Shown piece after piece: positions 26,588 to 51,240 of a stretch of 64,000 nucleotides of DNA. The position numbers and the translations under genes were made by a program. The stretch is from Candidatus Latescibacterota bacterium (GTDB taxonomy: Bacteria; Latescibacterota; UBA2968). How positions within the stretch are numbered: position 1 is the first letter of the stretch; every line of letters begins with the position of its first letter. Location: contig OZ242010.1 in NCBI GenBank assembly GCA_965204745.1, positions 1,088,001 through 1,152,000 of the forward strand, given 5' to 3'. The notes under the pieces are model-generated. The model did no database searches and was not told the DNA's origin. It worked only from the letters and a program-made list of their open reading frames with translations.

Positions 26588-26787
26588 TCAGTAGTCAGTT
26601 ACCCCGCCCACCCGCCGCACAAAACCACCACTCCCCAAGGCAACCGCTTCTAACCACTGTCTCTTACCTCTCCCGTCTTACCTCTCACCGAAGGGGGTTG
26701 GGTTCGGGCGGACTGACCCCTTGGGCGGTGGAGGGGTTGCTTCACCGCTCCCGTCTTGTATCTTCGGGCGAGCACAGGAGCATCGCC

Positions 26788-32770: not shown

Positions 32771-33604
32771 ATGATTGGGGTAGGAATTTGCGGTGTTGCC
32801 GGGCGGATGGGGCAGCGCATCTCCCATCTGACCTTAGAGGCGGAAAATTTGGATTTGGGCGGCGGAGTCGAGTTTGCAGGCCATCCCGCGATAGGGAAAG
32901 ACATCGGCGACGTCATTGGCGTGCCGCATCTCGGCGTGCAAGTGGTGGCTAGCGTGGAAGCGATGGTGCGCGAGGTCGATGTGGTGGTCGCATTTACTGC
33001 GCCGCCCGAGCCCACGGCTGTCGCCGCGGAAATCGCAGGGCGTGCTGGCGTGCCGATGGTGATTGGCACAACTGGGTTGTCTGCGGAACAAGTCGAGGCG
33101 ATGACGGACGCGCTGAAGGATGTGGCCTGCGTGTTTGCCCCCAATTTCAGCGTGGGGGTTACAGTGCTGACGCAGTTGGTGGAAGAGGCCGCGCGCATTT
33201 TGGGCGGTGATTACGACGTGGAAATCGTCGAGGCGCACCACAGGTTTAAGACAGACGCGCCTTCGGGAACGGCTTACGCGCTGGCCGAGGCCGCGGCGCG
33301 TGGCTTGGAGCGCGATTTGCAAGCCGTGGGCATTTATGGGCGCCATGGCGATACGGGCGCGAGAACGCGCGATGAAATTGGGGTCCACGCAGTGCGCGCG
33401 GGCGATATTGTCGGCGAACACACGGTTGTGTTTGGGGGCATTGGCGAGAGCGTGATGCTCGTCCACCGAGCGCAGAGCCGAGACACGTTTGCCTCTGGCG
33501 TGATTCGCGCCATTCCCTTTGCGGTTGACGCGGATCCAGGGATGTACGATATGCGCGATGTGTTGGGGTTGAGGGGAGAGATAAGAGGTAAGATACTCTC
33601 TTAA
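32771..33604 (+). CDS. dapB: 4-hydroxy-tetrahydrodipicolinate reductase; stop codon lies in the IS end
   Basis: GVAGRMG, VIGTTG, EAHHRFKTDAPSGTA, RAGDIVGEH. Confidence 0.95.
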   Translation: MIGVGICGVAGRMGQRISHLTLEAENLDLGGGVEFAGHPAIGKDIGDVIGVPHLGVQVVASVEAMVREVDVVVAFTAPPEPTAVAAEIAGRAGVPMVIGTTGLSAEQVEAMTDALKDVACVFAPNFSVGVTVLTQLVEEAARILGGDYDVEIVEAHHRFKTDAPSGTAYALAEAAARGLERDLQAVGIYGRHGDTGARTRDEIGVHAVRAGDIVGEHTVVFGGIGESVMLVHRAQSRDTFASGVIRAIPFAVDADPGMYDMRDVLGLRGEIRGKILS

Positions 33605-33607
33605 AGG

Positions 33608-34615
33608 TCAAGGGGATTGCGGGGCGATTCGATAGAATTTCTCGCCCTCAAAATCTTGGTCATGCCGCAACATGCCCCAGATTGAATGGAGCAACTTTCG
33701 CATCACCGCAACGATAGCCTGCAAAGGTTTCTTGCCGCGGGCAATGAGTTGGTCATAGAAGGCTTTGACATGGACTTCGTGTCTGATGGCCACCCAGGCA
33801 GGCATATAGAGGGCATGGCGGAGGTACTTATTCCCGGTTTTCGAGATGCGTCTTTGTGGGTTGGCGGTTCCGGATTGTTTGGGTTTGGGATCCAGGCCTG
33901 CATGTGCGACCCACTGGGGCGGTTGCATCTCCTCAGGCAAAAGGGTCAACTCGGCCAAGAGCCGCAAGGCGCTCGTTTGTGCGATGCCAGGCGTCGAGCA
34001 GAGGCGTTGGTAGGCGCGCTTGAGGGTCTCATCGTGCAAAACGAGATCGAGGGCTTGGTCTTCCAAGTATGCAATCCGGCGTTTGAGGTGTCGAATATTC
34101 ACCTGAATATCGCGTGCGATGCGCCGTGTGCTCAGGATGTGGTAGCTTTGCGCGTGGTTGCGGCTCTGTTCACTGATGATCACCTGCTTGAGTTGGTCAA
34201 TGCGTCTGGTGAGGGCTTGCAGTTGAAGCCGTTGCTCACTCGGCGCTTGCCAAGGCACAAACGGCATGCGCTCGGCATAATCCATGATCAACAACGCATC
34301 CTTCGCATCCGTCTTGGCTCGTTGCATGCGGGCTTGACCGTACTTGCTCATCGCTTTGGGATTGACGACCATGACCTTTGTGTGGCGATGCCGATGCAAG
34401 GCCAAGGCCACCCCCAAGCTGTAAAGCCCGGTCGCTTCGAGGCACACAGAGACCATGTGCCCGCCCTTGGTGAGCCACTTCAGCAACCGCTTATGGGCTT
34501 GGGGATCATTGGCAAAGGTCGCTTGCATGACAGCTTGTCCGGGTCTGGACAGGGCAACAGACAACGTGCGGGCACTGACATCAATGCCGGCGAAAGCGGG
34601 TTGAGATTTCGACAT
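33608..34615 (-). CDS. IS110 family transposase/recombinase
   Basis: AGIDVS, CLEATG, KTDAKDA (DEDD); GLDP..KQSGT, ISKTGNKYLR, AVMRKLL. Confidence 0.95.
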   Translation of the reverse strand: MSKSQPAFAGIDVSARTLSVALSRPGQAVMQATFANDPQAHKRLLKWLTKGGHMVSVCLEATGLYSLGVALALHRHRHTKVMVVNPKAMSKYGQARMQRAKTDAKDALLIMDYAERMPFVPWQAPSEQRLQLQALTRRIDQLKQVIISEQSRNHAQSYHILSTRRIARDIQVNIRHLKRRIAYLEDQALDLVLHDETLKRAYQRLCSTPGIAQTSALRLLAELTLLPEEMQPPQWVAHAGLDPKPKQSGTANPQRRISKTGNKYLRHALYMPAWVAIRHEVHVKAFYDQLIARGKKPLQAIVAVMRKLLHSIWGMLRHDQDFEGEKFYRIAPQSP

Positions 34616-34670
34616 GGGGGCCTCCTGTGATGAGGGGTTGTAAGGGGTCTGGTGTGCGCTCGAGTTCGAT

Positions 34671-34850
34671 CCCGACCATTGACGCCAAGTCTACCGGTCT
34701 TGTATATGCAGCCTCAAGGGACTTAGATACTCTTCGGCATAGACCCGGCGGTCGGGGGGCCTATCTTACCTACAAGGTCATCGCCTTCAAGAGGGGCCGG
34801 CCTTCCCCGAGCCGGGCATCAAGATGGCTTATCTCGATACGAGGGCGCAA
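34671..34850 (-). ncRNA. Predicted bridge RNA of IS110 copy 1
   Basis: Two stem-flanked internal loops containing AGAGUAUCU/CAAGA (donor guides) and AGGUAAGAUA (target guide); exact ends unknown. Confidence 0.75.
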
Positions 34851-34905
34851 CTCCTAATTAACCCTTACTTCCAAGATACAAGAGGTAAGATACTCTCTTA
34901 AAAGG

Positions 34906-35913
34906 TCAAGGGGTTTTCGGGGTGATTCGATAGAATTTTTCGCCCTCAAAATCTTGGTCATGGCGCAACATGCCCCAGATCGAATGGAGCAACTTTCGCA
35001 TCACCGCAACGATAGCCTGCAAAGGTTTCTTGCCGCGGGCGATGAGTTGGTCATAGAAGGCTTTGACATGGCCTTCGTGTCTGATGGCCACCCAGGCAGG
35101 CATATAGAGGGCATGGCGGAGGTACTTATTCCCGGTTTTCGAGATGCGTCTTTGTGGATTGGCGGTTCCGGATTGTTTGGGTTTGGGATCCAGGCCTGCA
35201 TGTGCGACCCACTGGGGCGGTTGCATCTCCTCTGGCAAAAGGGTCAACTCGGCCAAGAGCCGCAAGGCACTCGTTTGCGCGATGCCAGGCGTCGAGCAGA
35301 GGCGTTGGTAGGCACGCTTGAGGGGCTCATCGTGCAAAACGAGATCGAGGGCTTGGCTTTCCAAGTATGCAATCCGGCGTTTGAAGTGTCGAATATTCAC
35401 CTGAATATCGCGTGCGATGAGACGTGTGCTGCGGATGTGGTAGCTCTGCGCGTGGTTGCGGCTCTGTTCGCGGATGATCTCCTGCTTGAGTTGGTCAATG
35501 CGTCTGGTGAGGGCTTGCAGTTGAAGCCGTTGCTCGCTCGGCGCTTGCCAAGGCACAAAAGGCATGCGCTCGGCATAGTCGAGGATCAACAACGCATCCT
35601 TCGCATCCGTCTTCGCCCGTTGCATGCAGGCTTGGGCGTACTTGCTCATCGCTTTGGGATTGACGACCATGACCTTTGTGTGGCGATGCCGATGCAAGGC
35701 CAAGGCCACCCCCAAACTGTAAAGCCCGGTCGCTTCGAGGCACACAGAGACCATGTGCCCGCCCTTCGTGAGCCACTTCAGCAACCGCTTATGCGCTTGG
35801 GGATCATTGGCAAAGGTCGCTTGCATGACAGCTTGTCCGGGTCTGGACAGGGCAACGGACAACGTGCGGGCACTGACATCAATGCCGGCAAAAGCGGGGT
35901 GAGATTTCGACAT
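34906..35913 (-). CDS. IS110 family transposase/recombinase
   Basis: Close paralog of 33608-34615; AGGAGG RBS before MSKSHP. Confidence 0.95.
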   Translation of the reverse strand: MSKSHPAFAGIDVSARTLSVALSRPGQAVMQATFANDPQAHKRLLKWLTKGGHMVSVCLEATGLYSLGVALALHRHRHTKVMVVNPKAMSKYAQACMQRAKTDAKDALLILDYAERMPFVPWQAPSEQRLQLQALTRRIDQLKQEIIREQSRNHAQSYHIRSTRLIARDIQVNIRHFKRRIAYLESQALDLVLHDEPLKRAYQRLCSTPGIAQTSALRLLAELTLLPEEMQPPQWVAHAGLDPKPKQSGTANPQRRISKTGNKYLRHALYMPAWVAIRHEGHVKAFYDQLIARGKKPLQAIVAVMRKLLHSIWGMLRHDQDFEGEKFYRITPKTP

Positions 35914-35970
35914 GGGGGCCTCCTGTGATGAGGGGGTTGTAAGGGATCTGGTGCGCGCTCGGGGTCGCGT

Positions 35971-36150
35971 CCCGACCATTGACGCCAAGTCTACCGGTCT
36001 TGTATATGCAGCCTCAAGGGGCTTAGATACTCTTCGGCATAGACCCGGCGGTCGGGGGGCCTATCTTACCTACAAGGTCATCGCCTTCAAGAGGGGCCGG
36101 CCTTCCCCGAGCCGGGCATCAAGATGGCTTATCTCGATACGAGGGCGCAA
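35971..36150 (-). ncRNA. Predicted bridge RNA of IS110 copy 2
   Basis: Identical to copy 1 except one substitution (36021) that turns a G-U pair into G-C. Confidence 0.75.
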
Positions 36151-36267
36151 CTCCTAATTAACCCTTACTTCCAAGATACAAGAGGGGTGGTCTTCTCACG
36201 TCTTGCCTCTCACCTTTTTGCGCGATGCCCCCGTGCTCGCCCGAAGATACAAGAGGTAAGATGGAAG

Positions 36268-36327
36268 TTTAGCCACGAGCGGGATACAACTGGCGATAGC
36301 CCGTTCAAAGGCGAGCAGTGTGTGTAG
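36268..36327 (+). repeat. REP-like unit of the 14217 family
   Basis: TTTAGCCACGAGCGGGATACAACTGGCGATAGCCCGTTCAAAGGCGAGCAGTGTGT. Confidence 0.8.
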
Positions 36328-36382
36328 CCGTGCAGTGGGCGGGTTCGGATTTTGATGGATACAACAATTGGAGGAGGCAGTT

Positions 36383-38290
36383 ATGAGTGCGGATGTACAG
36401 GCGGCCTTTGATGCCGGGCAAACGCTCGCGGTGGCTGACCGGGTTTTGATCGCGCCCGAGGTGGGGACGTTGCAGGGCCGCGTGGATGATCTGTTGGGGG
36501 CCATTCAAAACAGCGGGGCGTCGGGCGAGTTGATGTGCAAGACCCTGATTCAGTTGGGCATGAATTTTGTGGGGCGCGATGCCGAGATCGTCGGCTATGG
36601 CGCGGATGAGATCGCCGCCGCGCTCGACCGCGTGTTGGGCGCGCTTGACGCGGTGGAGGGCGCGGTGGCAACGCGCGTGGTGGCTGGCTTTTTGGCGGAT
36701 ATGAAATCCGTGAACTTGTCCGATAGCCTTTCCGGGTTGCTGGCCGAACGCATTGAGATGGGTTTGGACGCGGGCAATCCCGGCAGGTCGTTTTTGACCT
36801 TGCTCAAAGCCGAGATGCGCGGCGGCGTGTATTGGCAGATGATCGGGGAGAATGTCTGTAAGTTCGGCAATGATTTTGCGCGCGGGCTGGAGTATTTGCG
36901 GCACTACGGATTTTGTCAGGTCTCGACGAATCCGGTCTTGGCGGCCAAGGCGTTTGACGAAGATCCGTCGCTGGATGACGATCTCAAGGCCGAGATCGCC
37001 AAGCGCGACGCGTGGAAAGCCGAGCCGGAAAAGCATGCCGATGAAATCGTCATGGCGGCCACGTTGATCGCGCTGTGGCCGAATCTGTCCATTTTCCGGC
37101 CCTTGGCCCTGCACACGGAGTTGAAGGACTACATGGTGAGTTTTCAACTCAACCCCAATATCGCGGACCAGGCCGATGCCAGCATTGAAGATGCGCGCAA
37201 CGCCTACGGGATTGCCGATGCGTATTTGAGGGATTACGACGAGTTGCTGGGCGCGGGCGAGATCGCGCTGGATCCCAATATCGTTTTTAAGGTGGGCGGC
37301 GGGCACGAGGCCGCGCGAAAAATTACGACCGTGCTCAACAGCGAGGGTATTGGCACGAATAACACGGTGGTCTATACCGTGGCGCAAGAGGTGCAACTGG
37401 TCATCGACGCGTTTGGGGGCAAGGCGCGGGCCGCGCAGGCGGGCAAGCCCGTGGTGCGGACTTATGAGACGAACATGGGCGGGCGTTTTGTCAGCCATTT
37501 GCGCGAGGTGGAAGCCGAGAAGTTGTTTGGCGCGTTGATAGAAGATCGCGCCGGCGAATGGCTCGCGGAACTCGCTGCGGATTTGGGCGTGGAGATGCCC
37601 GATGGCACACTGGCCGAGCGTGCGGCTCATGTCTGTTCTTACGCCCATTTGAAGTCGCTGGATCACCCGATTGTCTTAAAAGTTGCCGAGGCCGTGGGGC
37701 AGTCTTCAGAGGCGATGGTGCAACTCGAAGCGGATTTGAAGAAGGCGGGGACCCTGGTCGCTCGGCGCGTGCATTGGATTTTTTACGCGCCTGAAAATAG
37801 GCCCAAGTGGGTGGCCTACTTGTCCAAGACCTACGGGTTGACGGAAGATCGCGCACACTGGATTTTGGCGTCGATGGACGTGTTGCCCGCGTCCAAGCGC
37901 GTTCCCGACGATACGCTTCACGCCTTGGGCAAAAACATGTGCCACACGGAATTTCCCAATCACCAACGCGCGGTGCAACTCGTGTCCGAAGCACCGGATT
38001 TTGATCTGGACGAACTCCGGGGATCCATCGGCGATGAATACGATCCCGGCGTGGCGCAACGGCTTTACGAATTGCCCGATTTTCAAAAGGGCTACGACTT
38101 GACACCCGCGCTGAAGGCGTTTCTCGAGCGCGAGGTCAAAATCGATCTGAGCGGCTGGCAGACGCGGGGCATCGAACCCGGCGATTGGCCCAATTTTGGA
38201 TCGGTGCAAAAAACCAGCAACGAGTTCAAGGCGGCGTACGACGCATTTTTGATCCGCTGCGTCAACTTGGCGAAAGAAGTTGCGGGATAG
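36383..38290 (+). CDS. Large transaldolase-family protein
   Basis: VSTNPVL, VSFQLNP, NIVFKV, GTNNTVVYTVAQ, MGGR; GGAGG RBS. Confidence 0.75.
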   Translation: MSADVQAAFDAGQTLAVADRVLIAPEVGTLQGRVDDLLGAIQNSGASGELMCKTLIQLGMNFVGRDAEIVGYGADEIAAALDRVLGALDAVEGAVATRVVAGFLADMKSVNLSDSLSGLLAERIEMGLDAGNPGRSFLTLLKAEMRGGVYWQMIGENVCKFGNDFARGLEYLRHYGFCQVSTNPVLAAKAFDEDPSLDDDLKAEIAKRDAWKAEPEKHADEIVMAATLIALWPNLSIFRPLALHTELKDYMVSFQLNPNIADQADASIEDARNAYGIADAYLRDYDELLGAGEIALDPNIVFKVGGGHEAARKITTVLNSEGIGTNNTVVYTVAQEVQLVIDAFGGKARAAQAGKPVVRTYETNMGGRFVSHLREVEAEKLFGALIEDRAGEWLAELAADLGVEMPDGTLAERAAHVCSYAHLKSLDHPIVLKVAEAVGQSSEAMVQLEADLKKAGTLVARRVHWIFYAPENRPKWVAYLSKTYGLTEDRAHWILASMDVLPASKRVPDDTLHALGKNMCHTEFPNHQRAVQLVSEAPDFDLDELRGSIGDEYDPGVAQRLYELPDFQKGYDLTPALKAFLEREVKIDLSGWQTRGIEPGDWPNFGSVQKTSNEFKAAYDAFLIRCVNLAKEVAG

Positions 38291-51034: not shown

Positions 51035-51240
51035 CCGCTTTCAGGCCAATTGATCAACGAAGTGCATCGGGTTTTGGGGGTGTTGGGGTGGCCTTCTCCC
51101 CTCTTGCCTCTTACCTCTTACTTGTGGATGGGGTGTTGGGCGGGGACTGACCGCTTTCAGGCCAATTCATCAACGAAGTGCATCGGGTTTTGGGGATGTT
51201 GGGGTGGCCTTCTCCCGTCTCCCCTCTTGCCTCTTACTTG
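51035..51240 (+). repeat. Duplicated 66-bp block, each copy followed by short heptamer runs
   Basis: Blocks 51035-51100 and 51151-51216, two mismatches, followed by CCTCTTG/CCTCTTA. Confidence 0.85.

Follow-up and report, generated by a model that had tools for sequence, protein, structure and literature searches.

Downstream of dapB, in the 64,000-nucleotide stretch of DNA analysed here (the window), the assembled contig carries two intact IS110-family elements head to tail, both on the minus strand, and the locus raises the question of how two such elements came to lie side by side and what directed them to this place. The initial annotation had proposed two IS110 copies, and both code for a minus-strand recombinase of 335 aa with the Pfam domains PF01548 and PF02371. 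The copies (A and B, Table 1) are also diverged, as it had stated, with 96.1% identity over 1,288 columns, and 321 of the 336 translated positions (stop counted) are alike in the recombinases. The dapB frame crosses a heptamer remnant and reaches a TAA stop inside the right end of copy A; in relatives, the TGA or TAA stop of this gene comes directly after a conserved TTGAGG, and the downstream gene follows 40-390 bp after dapB.

Table 1. Features of the tandem locus, with their positions in the window
Feature	Position	Strand	Details
dapB (dihydrodipicolinate reductase)	32771..33604	+	Pfam DapB_N and DapB_C; ORF list
Host heptamer remnant, right target (RT) of copy A	33573..33590	-	TACCTCTTATCTCTCCCC in transposase-gene sense; fits the right-flank consensus TCTT[A/G]CCTCT of 47 A/B copies
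Core dinucleotide, copy A right end	33591..33592	-	CT in transposase sense; CT at both junctions in all copies
IS110-family element copy A (type A)	33593..34880	-	1,288 bp without cores; ends in transposase sense: left TGTATCTTGG, right ...AAGAGAGTAT
Recombinase gene, copy A	33608..34615	-	335 aa; PF01548 E 4.6e-23; PF02371 E 6.6e-20
Predicted bridge RNA, copy A	34658..34812	-	RNAalifold; coordinates derived by hand from the leader alignment
Left target guide, copy A	34789..34796	-	CCCCUCUU; same sense as left target plus core
Right target guide and handshake bases, copy A	34762..34773	-	GUAGGUAAGAUA; reverse complement TATCTTACCTAC
Left donor guide side of donor loop, copy A	34724..34734	-	AAGAGUAUCUA; matches right end AGAGTAT plus core CT
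Right donor guide side of donor loop, copy A	34698..34709	-	GCAUAUACAAGA; reverse complement TCTTGTATATGC; matches core plus left end TGTAT
9 bp between the elements	34881..34889	-	Core AG 34881-82, host AGGTA 34883-87, core AG 34888-89
IS110-family element copy B (type B)	34890..36180	-	1,291 bp without cores
Recombinase gene, copy B	34906..35913	-	335 aa from ATG; PF01548 E 1.2e-24; PF02371 E 4.8e-20
Predicted bridge RNA, copy B	35957..36112	-	Guide letters same as copy A
Target guides, copy B	36089-36096 and 36062-36073	-	
Donor-loop sides, copy B	36024-36034 and 35998-36009	-	
Core dinucleotide, copy B left end	36181..36182	-	
Copy B left target, loop and complementary heptamer run	36183..36214	unassigned	Left target CCCCT in transposase sense; loop GGTGGTC
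GTAG-type REP-like hairpin, then (in transposase sense, preceded by) CTTGTATCTT	36220..36253	-	
Downstream gene, weak transaldolase-like domain	36383..38290	+	Pfam TAL_FSA E 3.5e-11; ATG picked by comparison with relatives

The PF01548 match of the recombinases was above the curated cut-off, and the protein of copy A could be aligned over its full length with those of ISCro4 (9t56, E 7.9e-41) and IS621 (8wt6, E 1.9e-36), with which it shares the same two-domain organization although the matches are distant (phmmer bit scores 129-144). The motifs GIDVS (10), LEATG (59), KTDAKDA (101) and QSGT (247) were found in it; GIDVS and KTDAKDA align to the equivalent residues of ISCro4 (GIDVS, KTDA-DA), LEATG to CMEAT, and the SG of QSGT with an SG in ISCro4. 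The catalytic roles assigned to the motifs and to the serine are those reported for IS621 (PMC11208158). Judged from these alignments, the protein has an N-terminal DEDD (RuvC-like) domain and a C-terminal Tnp domain with a putative catalytic serine, which places the elements in the IS110 group of the IS110 family, with bridge-RNA recombinases of the IS621 type.

There are 52 full-length copies of the element in the 5.48-Mb genome, with 14 distinct sequences that fall into three subfamilies, A (8 copies, all identical), B (39, of which 31 are identical) and C (5), types A and B being 3.9% apart. All 52 are located within (TCTYRCC)n heptamer arrays, which make up 0.52% of the genome and were absent from a shuffled 1 Mb control. 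At least two strict heptamer units were found on a flank in 49 of the copies, the other three having imperfect or short units, and this exceeds chance. The left flank reads CCTCTT in all 46 of the scored A/B copies (8 of type A and 38 of type B, leaving aside a type-B copy that was offset by one base), with at most three exceptions at the next upstream position. The right flanks of the 47 A/B copies begin with TCT in every case, followed by T (43) or C (4), A or G (45) and CC (44). When the sites were reconstructed without the element, 38 of the 47 were perfect matches to CCCCTCTT[AG]CC, a sequence found empty at 84 further sites, and the other nine had 1-3 mismatches to the guide described below.

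The dinucleotide CT was found as the core at both junctions of these 52 copies and of 25 from relatives. Only CT is common to both ends, because in the second sister genome (G028) all 18 elements have different bases after the left and right cores (T and C, respectively); in variant B6 the same T/C difference accompanies a changed guide. The ends TGTATCTTGG... and ...AAGAGAGTAT have no terminal inverted repeats, and the junction sequences indicate no target-site duplication beyond the CT core. With these borders, the spacer between copies A and B, previously given as 12-14 bp of host repeat, is actually 9 bp long and amounts to one heptamer unit between two crossovers, with the cores exactly 7 bp apart.

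It is very unlikely that this arrangement is an assembly artefact in which two multi-copy repeats were misjoined in a metagenome-assembled chromosome. The 52 near-identical copies in a single-contig genome, present in sponge metagenome runs, would favour such an error; furthermore, none of the Logan contigs listed bridges positions 34860-34910, and a search of JGI metagenome contigs for the 46-nt junction gave no match. However, a 1.3-kb repeat is too long to be bridged by short-read unitigs, so their silence is uninformative, and the 9-bp spacer is what would be predicted for two guide-directed insertions into neighbouring units. The outer flanks also continue one and the same array, and relatives preserve the synteny of dapB with the downstream gene.

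The heptamer context and the complementary run that follows it (36190-36214) had been described correctly in the initial annotation, but not the element borders, since the AAGATAC units taken there as host DNA are the first bases of the element left end plus the core. It is also very unlikely that those borders were right after all, with GTATCTT units belonging to the host, insertion at (or duplication of) a 7-bp unit and an incidental match to the guide. Actually, GTATCTT starts the left end and recurs across the right end and its flank in every A/B copy, and the 10-mer CTTGTATCTT is very common (212 in the genome), as this explanation would have it. Yet the empty site that it implies, CCCCTCTT-GTATCTT-RCC, occurs 0 times in the genome versus 84 for the empty site with a CT core, and the repeat is reduced to GTATCT in B6 and the G028 elements, since the base following the right core depends on the target. 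Moreover, the sequence that pairs with the predicted donor loop is ...GTAT-CT-TGTAT..., and this calls for a GTA at each end of the element.

Together with the array on the other side, the region at 36183..36214 forms a heptamer palindrome, a layout that recurs at other copies such as 778458 and 2600962 (left flanks). A complementary heptamer run within 35-70 nt upstream was found at 2-7 of 47 occupied and at 9-15 of 84 empty sites (Fisher p 0.33-0.81). The target is a unit junction of a tandem heptamer array and not a REP hairpin, and these counts give no sign that a stem-loop beside it is needed. The motif CTTACCT was located at 26663, 26677, 26908, 47775, 47796 and 51110, most of them within one base of the positions given before, and on the other strand ending at 36260, where ~36252 had been indicated. 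Among the sites listed as unoccupied, only 51098 and 51221 match the guide in full, over 11 nt.

The leader 5' of the recombinase gene is predicted to fold as an outer stem enclosing two modules, each made of a stem and an internal loop. With 20 leaders as input, RNAalifold predicted 53 pairs, of which 19 show compensatory changes on both sides, and 95.4% of the cells were paired compared with 30-47% when the partners were slid, while none of 500 shuffles attained the observed values. Since 18 of the 20 leaders come from three closely related genomes, the shuffle control overstates the support and the slid-partner control is the fairer one. No matching family for the leader was found in Rfam, so the predicted RNA rests on the comparative folding of these 20 related leaders. 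One loop holds CCCCUCUU and the reverse complement of CTTACC, that is, the target; the presence of CCCCTCTT in the same internal loop as the reverse complement of TATCTTACCTAC is close to the target loop as it had been spelled in the initial annotation. The left guide has the letters of the left target on the top strand, and the right guide is the complement of the right target on that strand, with the core included in both; the handshake positions were assigned by analogy with those reported for IS621 (PMC11208158). In the donor loop, AAGAGUAUCU matches the right end AGAGTAT-CT and AUACAAGA is the complement of TCTTGTAT (core plus left end). Because the letters of the donor loop are nearly constant, they offer little covariation for a test. 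Comparative prediction points to a two-loop ncRNA in the left end, upstream of the gene, with a donor loop complementary to the joined ends.

We compared the letters of the target loop with the flanks in 52 copies of this genome (51 parsed) and 26 from relatives, distributed in seven guide classes, and the guide letters were found to covary with the flanks (four variants in the genome, two sister genomes and a more distant relative). Type C elements have the guide CGCCUCUU and a right guide with reverse complement TATCTTACTTAC, and their flanks are TCTCGCCT-CT and CT-TACTTCT, the left one in 3 of 4 and the right CT-TACTT also in 3 of 4 copies with that guide. Variant B6, with UCCCUCUC and the reverse complement TATCTCACCTAC, is flanked by TCTTCCCT-CT-CACCTCT. 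The 18 G028 elements carry CUCGCCUCU (reverse complement of the right guide, TATCTCCCTAC) and flanks TC(G/A)CCT-CT-CCCGTCT, 17 of them in arrays. The seven elements designated G024 have AUCC(U/C)CCUU, reverse complement TATCTTTTCTAC and flanks ...CCCC-CT-TTTCT, and none of the seven is in an array. Finally, L025 combines AAAUAGUCU with the flank AAATAGT-CT. The tolerated A/G and G/A positions appear to be the ones at which G-T or U-G wobble would allow pairing. When guides were scored against flanks in a matrix, the cognate guide came out best for six of the seven flank classes; in the remaining class (n=2) a non-cognate guide scores higher, and this class includes the chimeric copy 602784, whose C-like guides are at odds with its own flanks. 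The proposal of an RNA guide aimed at heptamer arrays is supported both by the matching flanks of 52 of 52 copies and by the association of variant guides with variant flanks.

We give scarcely any credence to a preference for arrays due to a property of the DNA (its structure, or an absence of selection against insertion) or to protein-DNA recognition in place of an RNA guide. Such a preference would leave unexplained the one fixed phase and unit junction shared by all 52 copies, the changes in the flanks that track the loop letters in six guide variants other than the main A/B type, and the G024 elements, which have other loop letters and avoid arrays (0/7); in addition, the upstream hairpin context is no commoner at occupied than at empty sites. 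Very probably we are dealing with an IS110-group element of ~1.29 kb, with a DEDD/serine recombinase and an upstream bridge RNA directed at the heptamer-array junction.

Copy A is the same letter for letter as seven dispersed copies and copy B as 30, indicating that the ~50 differences between them are subfamily differences and not local divergence. Each copy, moreover, sits at a proper target unit with a full set of junctions of its own. By these sequence comparisons A and B are independent insertions one repeat unit apart, as had been suspected; membership in sets of 8 and 31 identical copies, respectively, does not fit adjacent copies descended from one another at the locus. A local tandem duplication of one element with 9-14 bp of flank, followed by divergence, deserves equally little credence in spite of the head-to-tail order on one strand, the identity of about 96% and the tandem duplication of whole IS110 modules reported elsewhere (n = 437; 10.64898/2026.08.14.744561), being already contradicted by the exact dispersed matches and the complete junctions of both copies at proper units, and to revive it the dispersed identical copies would have to be assembly copies of this locus.

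Under the guided-insertion model, and as extrapolated from IS621, the element would be excised as a circle, and its joined ends ...AGAGAGTAT-CT-TGTATCTTGG... could form a TTGACC-N17/18-TATCTT promoter (computed spacing 17 in A and 18 in B), which would exist only on the joined ends because the -35 box lies in the right end. The donor loop would pair with the joined-end junction, the bridge RNA and the recombinase are predicted to recombine the CCCCTCTTACC target with this end-junction donor, and strands would be exchanged at the CT core. The target is one junction, TCTCCCC then TCTTRCC, in the host (TCTYRCC)n arrays, which are mostly intergenic and unreadable in one frame; they offer more than 120 near-identical landing sites, with about a third of the perfect ones occupied. 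An insertion destroys only the unit junction that it hits, and since the next unit is still usable, a type-A and a type-B copy could land 7 bp apart. The circle, the junction promoter, the expression of the RNA and current activity would all be expected by analogy with IS621.

The elements are a clear natural example of the bridge-RNA mechanism known since 2024 (PMC11208160) and not a new kind of system. The view that such targeting had not been described stands for the target class (a single phase within an array of tandem heptamers), of which we found no description in the literature searched, but not for the mechanism itself, which is published (PMC11208160). As reported for IS621, the guide RNA is (here by prediction) encoded upstream of the gene with the target loop before the donor loop, the left guide has the sense of the top strand, the right guide is its complement and the CT core is in both (PMC11208160). 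The A-U following the right target guide agrees with the final two bases of the right end and in this resembles the IS621 handshake guides A81/U82 (PMC11208158). The -35 box in RE-LE and a multi-copy intergenic repeat as target are likewise shared with the published account (PMC11208160). Unlike IS621, whose wild-type target is given as ATCAGGCCTAC (PMC11208160), the element described here uses the unit junction of a tandem 7-bp array instead of a REP hairpin, has what is probably a far higher copy number (52 here) and comprises three co-resident subfamilies with different guides, and it is described from sequence data. ISPpu9 and ISPpu10 of Pseudomonas putida, along with other IS110-family elements directed at REPs, likewise insert into identical copies of one intergenic repeat (PMC12288879; 10.64898/2026.03.19.712850). 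ISPpu10 is reported to depend on a stem-loop at the target, which acts as a second gate, whereas here the upstream hairpin context is the same at 47 occupied and 84 empty sites and the target is a microsatellite-like tandem array. The tandem IS110 modules of 10.64898/2026.08.14.744561 resemble our locus in being two complete adjacent modules on one strand; in contrast to what is reported for them, the pair downstream of dapB represents two insertions of different subfamilies, the intact second target being supplied by the next array unit.

The 10-mer CTTGTATCTT consists of the CT core and the first eight bases of the element left end. Beside the tandem pair, at 36220..36253, it borders a REP-like hairpin and has the look of a left junction whose element is missing. 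The three genomes that carry this IS clade contain it 212, 242 and 294 times, and the range over 18 other genomes of the genus is 6-56. Of the 212 occurrences in this genome, 166 lie away from any full-length element; a GTAG-type REP-like hairpin comes next in 103 of these, and a second repeat family in 17. In the latter family, 16 of 151 copies have a clean 7-bp GTATCTT insert, at the type of site used by the elements of the sister genome. These repeats might indicate that the bridge recombinase shapes the repeat landscape of its host besides using it, loss of elements between their 7-bp direct repeats leaving a heptamer-sized scar and 'half-match' recombination with the donor half moving REP-like modules that begin with the right-donor sequence, a double scenario that we consider unlikely on present evidence. 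If true, short repeats seeded and dispersed by an RNA-guided IS would later become its own landing pads.

Two ORFs of 335 amino acids each lie on the - strand between dapB and a downstream gene with a weak transaldolase-like domain. Both carry the IS110-family transposase domains PF01548 and PF02371 (Pfam) and align over their full length to ISCro4 (9t56, E 7.9e-41) and IS621 (8wt6, E 1.9e-36), the two bridge recombinases with solved structures. The recombinase motifs were found as GIDVS at residue 10, LEATG at 59, KTDAKDA at 101 and QSGT at 247, and catalytic roles for the corresponding residues of IS621 are given in PMC11208158. Judged from sequence, both elements (copy A, next to dapB, and copy B) belong to the IS110 group with a bridge RNA, i.e. 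a guide RNA with a target loop and a donor loop, and all the defining features that sequence can address are present.

The genome holding the window (G000) is a single contig (C1) of 5.48 Mb with a G+C content of 56.5%. With copy A as query, blastn recovered 52 full-length copies with 14 distinct sequences: type A (8 identical copies, including copy A of the window), type B (39 copies, 31 of them identical and copy B in the identical set) and type C (5 copies, ~88% identity to A). Copies A and B share 96.1% DNA identity. Each neighbour has many exact matches elsewhere in the genome, which excludes a local duplication with later divergence; the independent insertions proposed by the initial annotation are borne out, with two subfamilies inserted separately. 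All five type C copies (G000:C1:216678, 288681, 1307068, 2197891 and 3989018) border a short repeated module (TCTTACTTCTTGCCTCTTACTTGGGGATAGGGCTTGCGG...) that is the same in every case and has many further occurrences without an element.

Table. Features of the element pair and its neighbours (positions in the window, + strand coordinates).
Feature	Position	Strand	Remark
dapB	32771-33604	+	upstream neighbour of the element pair
Core, right end of copy A	33591-92		
Copy A	33593-34880		
Core, left of copy A	34881-82		
Host AGGTA between the elements	34883-87		
Core, right of copy B	34888-89		
Copy B	34890-36180		
Core, left of copy B	36181-82		
Gene with weak transaldolase-like domain	from ~36383	+	downstream neighbour of the element pair

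In the sense of the transposase gene, used here for all element sequences, every A/B copy reads ...TCTCCCCT-CT-[TGTATCTTGGAAG ... AAGAGAGTAT-CT]-T(A/G)CCTCTT.... We read the core shared by element and target at the crossover as CT, as in IS621, on three lines of evidence. Firstly, the empty site expected under the boundaries initially annotated, CCCCTCTT-GTATCTT-RCC, occurs 0 times in the genome, versus 84 occurrences of CCCCTCTT[AG]CC. Secondly, 18 related elements of one sister genome (G028) have a T contributed by the element after the left core and a C contributed by the target after the right core, so that CT alone is common to both junctions; the same pattern was found in G000 in B6, a guide variant, where again only CT is common to both. 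Thirdly, the predicted donor loop pairs with ...GTAT-CT-TGTAT..., and GTA is needed at both element ends. When both elements are excised at the cores the remaining sequence is ACCACC-CCTCTTA-CCTCTTA-CCTCTTA-TCTCTCC, three ordinary repeat units, and the two crossovers are exactly one unit (7 bp) apart. The spacer is thus 9 bp with the cores included, not the 12-14 bp first annotated, and the AAGATAC units previously taken for host sequence belong to the left end of the element plus the core.

The A/B target is one junction between two units of a host tandem repeat, (TCTYRCC)n. Period 7 is the commonest array period in this genome (1,119 of 3,579 arrays detected by Tandem Repeats Finder). Strict arrays, defined by at least 3 units of T[CT]T[CT]N[CT][CGT], number 698 and total 28.3 kb, 0.52% of the genome, and none appeared in a shuffled 1 Mb control. 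At least 2 strict units were found on a flank of 49 of the 52 copies, so the enrichment of heptamer context that had been suggested as a check holds genome-wide; the other three have short or imperfect units, among them copy B, which has its right flank interrupted by copy A. The reconstructed target is a perfect CCCCTCTT[AG]CC at 38 of 47 A/B copies and has 1-3 mismatches at the other 9. Perfect sites are filled in about a third of cases (~31%) and the 84 empty ones include two in the window, at 51098 and 51221. The CTTACCT heptamers first listed as unoccupied sites are real, although most of them lack the CCCCT half. A structural gate at the target is reported for ISPpu10; here a hairpin upstream of the target is no commoner at occupied than at empty sites (47 and 84, respectively), leaving a gate of that type unsupported. 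Another heptamer family, (CTGACNA)n, is unrelated to this one and even more abundant: G000 has 922 runs of >3 units, and none of the 20 other genomes of the genus has more than 45.

The leaders, from the left end to the ATG (263-267 nt), were aligned as 20 distinct sequences, 7 from this genome, 11 from two sister genomes (G024 and G028), one from a more distant Latescibacterota MAG and one from a gammaproteobacterial MAG. RNAalifold predicted an outer stem around two stem/internal-loop/stem modules, with 53 pairs of which 19 show compensatory changes. On the - strand the predicted RNA spans 34658-34812 in copy A and 35957-36112 in copy B. Paired cells amount to 95.4%, versus 30-47% on sliding the partners by 1-3 columns within the same alignment, and pairs with double changes to 19 versus 5-10. 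None of 500 shuffles reached the observed values, but the leaders are related, so the slid-partner control is the fairer one. In the first (target) loop, CCCCUCUU lies on the 5' and GUAGGUAAGAUA on the 3' side, the reverse complement of the latter being TATCTTACCTAC; the second (donor) loop has AAGAGUAUCUA and GCAUAUACAAGA, the reverse complement of GCAUAUACAAGA being TCTTGTATATGC. The loop layout is that of IS621, where left guides pair with the bottom strand and right guides with the top strand, both covering the core (PMC11208160). Furthermore, the right target guide is followed by an A-U that matches the final two bases of the right end, like the handshake guides A81/U82 of IS621 (PMC11208158). 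An Rfam scan of 33400-36400 with E up to 1 matched no family. Computed joining of the ends places TTGACC of the right end 17 (A) or 18 (B) bases from TATCTT of the left end, a pair that would form a promoter only on the circle, whose junction would read ...AGAGAGTAT-CT-TGTATCTTGG...; the -35 box of IS621 is likewise in its right end (PMC11208160).

The strongest evidence for guidance by the predicted RNA is the covariation of guides and flanks.

Table. Predicted target guides and observed flanks by class of element (number of elements in brackets).
Class	Left guide	Reverse complement of right guide	Flanks
Type A/B (44 parsed)	CCCCUCU	CT-TACCT	TCTCCCCT-CT and CT-T(A/G)CCT
Type C (4)	CGCCUCU	CT-TACTT	TCTC(G/A)CCT-CT (G in 3, A in 1), CT-TACTT (3/4)
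Variant B6 (1)	UCCCUCUC	CT-CACCT	TCTTCCCT-CT-CACCT
Sister genome G028 (18)	CUCGCCUCU	CT-CCCTA	TC(G/A)CCT-CT-CCCGT
Sister genome G024 (7)	AUCC(U/C)CCUU	CT-TTTCT	CCCC-CT-TTTCT
L025, element of a more distant relative (59% aa identity)	AAAUAGUCU	left out of comparison	AAATAGT-CT

Comparing guide classes with flank classes in a 7x7 matrix, the cognate guide gave the best strict score for 6 of the 7 classes; the only exception is a class of n=2 that contains a chimeric copy. At the variable flank positions a guide G or a guide U stands opposite A/G on the top strand, from which we infer that mismatches are tolerated at occupied sites mainly where G-T or U-G wobble pairing is possible. The proposal that an RNA guide is aimed at the heptamer repeats finds support in this covariation, at the level of sequence. 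The target sequences CCCCTCTTACC, CCCCTCTTGCC, TACCTCTTACC, CGCCTCTTACTT and TCCCTCTCACC are proposed for the recombinase together with its leader RNA. The sole element of 18 outside an array in G028 (L018) has flanks, GTTGCCT-CT / CT-CCACTC, that match the guide only partly, and it may be a natural off-target insertion. A chimeric copy (G000:C1:602784-604071) has flanks that do not fit its own guides. It is C-like over the initial ~190 nt, where both target guides lie, and A/B-like over the remainder, a pattern pointing to recombination or gene conversion among subfamilies that followed its insertion.

The possibility that the tandem is an assembly artefact was considered using public reads. 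Part of the window is contained in 17 public runs, mainly labelled as sponge metagenomes. The contigs of four of them are short unitigs that break at repeats, with no listed piece bridging the A-B junction, and the exact 46-nt junction had no match in JGI metagenome contigs. Two features count in favour of a real tandem: a 9-bp spacer is expected from two guided insertions into neighbouring units, and on the outer sides the flanks run on into a single array and into syntenic genes. A contig of run X5, of depth 5.5 and with 29 letters on its short side, leaves out copy B by connecting 34890 to 36181. It is longer than a clean empty site by 3 letters and may come from another locus or strain.

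With a cut-off of E up to 1e-60, this IS clade was found in 3 of 21 genomes of the genus: G000 (56 matches including fragments), G024 (7) and G028 (18), the matches in the last two being the loci of the elements already counted and no extra evidence. In the genes beside dapB these two sister genomes are also the closest to G000 (87-92% nucleotide identity), followed by G001 (77-84%) and G006 (76-79%). Runs of three TCTYRCC units number 522 in G000, 228 in G028 and 0-2 in each of the other 19 genomes, G024 included, and elements lie in arrays in 17 of 18 cases in G028 and 0 of 7 in G024. The guides thus point at arrays only where arrays exist and elsewhere at another repeat. This fits guides that adapt to whichever abundant host repeat is available, as an observation on three related genomes and not a test. 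At six loci of the same genus dapB is followed after 40-170 bp by the same downstream gene, and in G024, G028 and G001 the two genes are 190-390 bp apart, with other repeats between them. All nine loci lack an element after dapB, and a singly occupied allele, one of the checks initially suggested, was not found among them; the spacers are too diverged to provide the exact pre-insertion allele. The dapB of G000 is without the stop of its relatives (TGA or TAA after TTGAGG; window 33560-33604): its frame crosses an array remnant and ends at the TAA at 33602-33604, inside the right end of copy A, giving the product a short altered C-terminal tail.

The motif CTTGTATCTT, formed by the CT core and the first 8 bases of the left end, occurs 212 times in G000 versus ~6 expected from composition (window instance 36244-36253, - strand), 166 of them away from full copies. 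These stray motifs are followed by a GTAG-type REP-like hairpin (103), a second repeat family (17), left-end fragments (11) or other sequence (35). The two sister genomes with the IS clade have 242 and 294 occurrences and the 18 other genomes of the genus 6-56; the three rich genomes (212-294) are one another's closest relatives. REP-like hairpins with the GTAG head on the other strand (GTAGGGGCGATGCCCCCGTGCTCGCCC) are found at 36220-36243 in the window and at ~268 places in the genome. A GTAG-headed hairpin is the architecture of the REPs moved by RAYT transposases. The second repeat family, beginning CCTCGTAGGCACAGGCG, has 151 copies (e.g. G000 C1:415939, 1294348 and 2613388); a clean 7-bp GTATCTT insert at CCCC-CT-T is found in 16 of the 151 and absent from most others, and may be the scar of an IS110-type element. 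The repeats bearing CTTGTATCTT are not two-ended miniature copies (MITEs), given that the right-end motif GAGTATCT is not enriched outside elements (81 sites, nearly all with unrelated flanks that by eye look unique and coding-like) and that AGAGAGTATCT occurs only 6 times outside full copies. The stray motifs may be scars from loss between the 7-bp direct repeats of the element, repeats mobilised by donor-half recombination, with CT-TGTATCTT beside the REP-like module as donor half, or a repeat specific to this lineage that simply has the motif in common.

The elements described here target tandem 7-bp arrays at one fixed phase, whereas IS621 and ISPpu9/ISPpu10 target a REP hairpin. A 2026 preprint (10.64898/2026.08.14.744561) describes tandem duplications of IS110 modules and states that IS110 insertion does not regenerate a target. 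In contrast to those tandems, the pair found here is not a duplication and the array supplies the next target. A literature search found no paper on heptamer arrays as IS110 targets, though natural targets may be listed in supplements. A tandem array would lift the usual self-limitation of IS110, in which insertion destroys the target, and the next unit as a fresh site explains back-to-back copies without duplication. Bridge-RNA programming is seen here in a natural experiment: the three co-resident subfamilies have guides that differ by 1-2 letters, and the heptamer junctions they occupy differ accordingly. The two sister species have further reprogrammed guides, which still point to arrays in one of them and to an unrelated repeat in the other. 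For engineering, these elements would offer a distant set of bridge recombinase/RNA pairs with known natural targets. For genome biology, RNA-guided elements would join the mobile DNA for which heptamer arrays serve as a harmless place to land, here in a repeat-rich, sponge-associated lineage of Latescibacterota.
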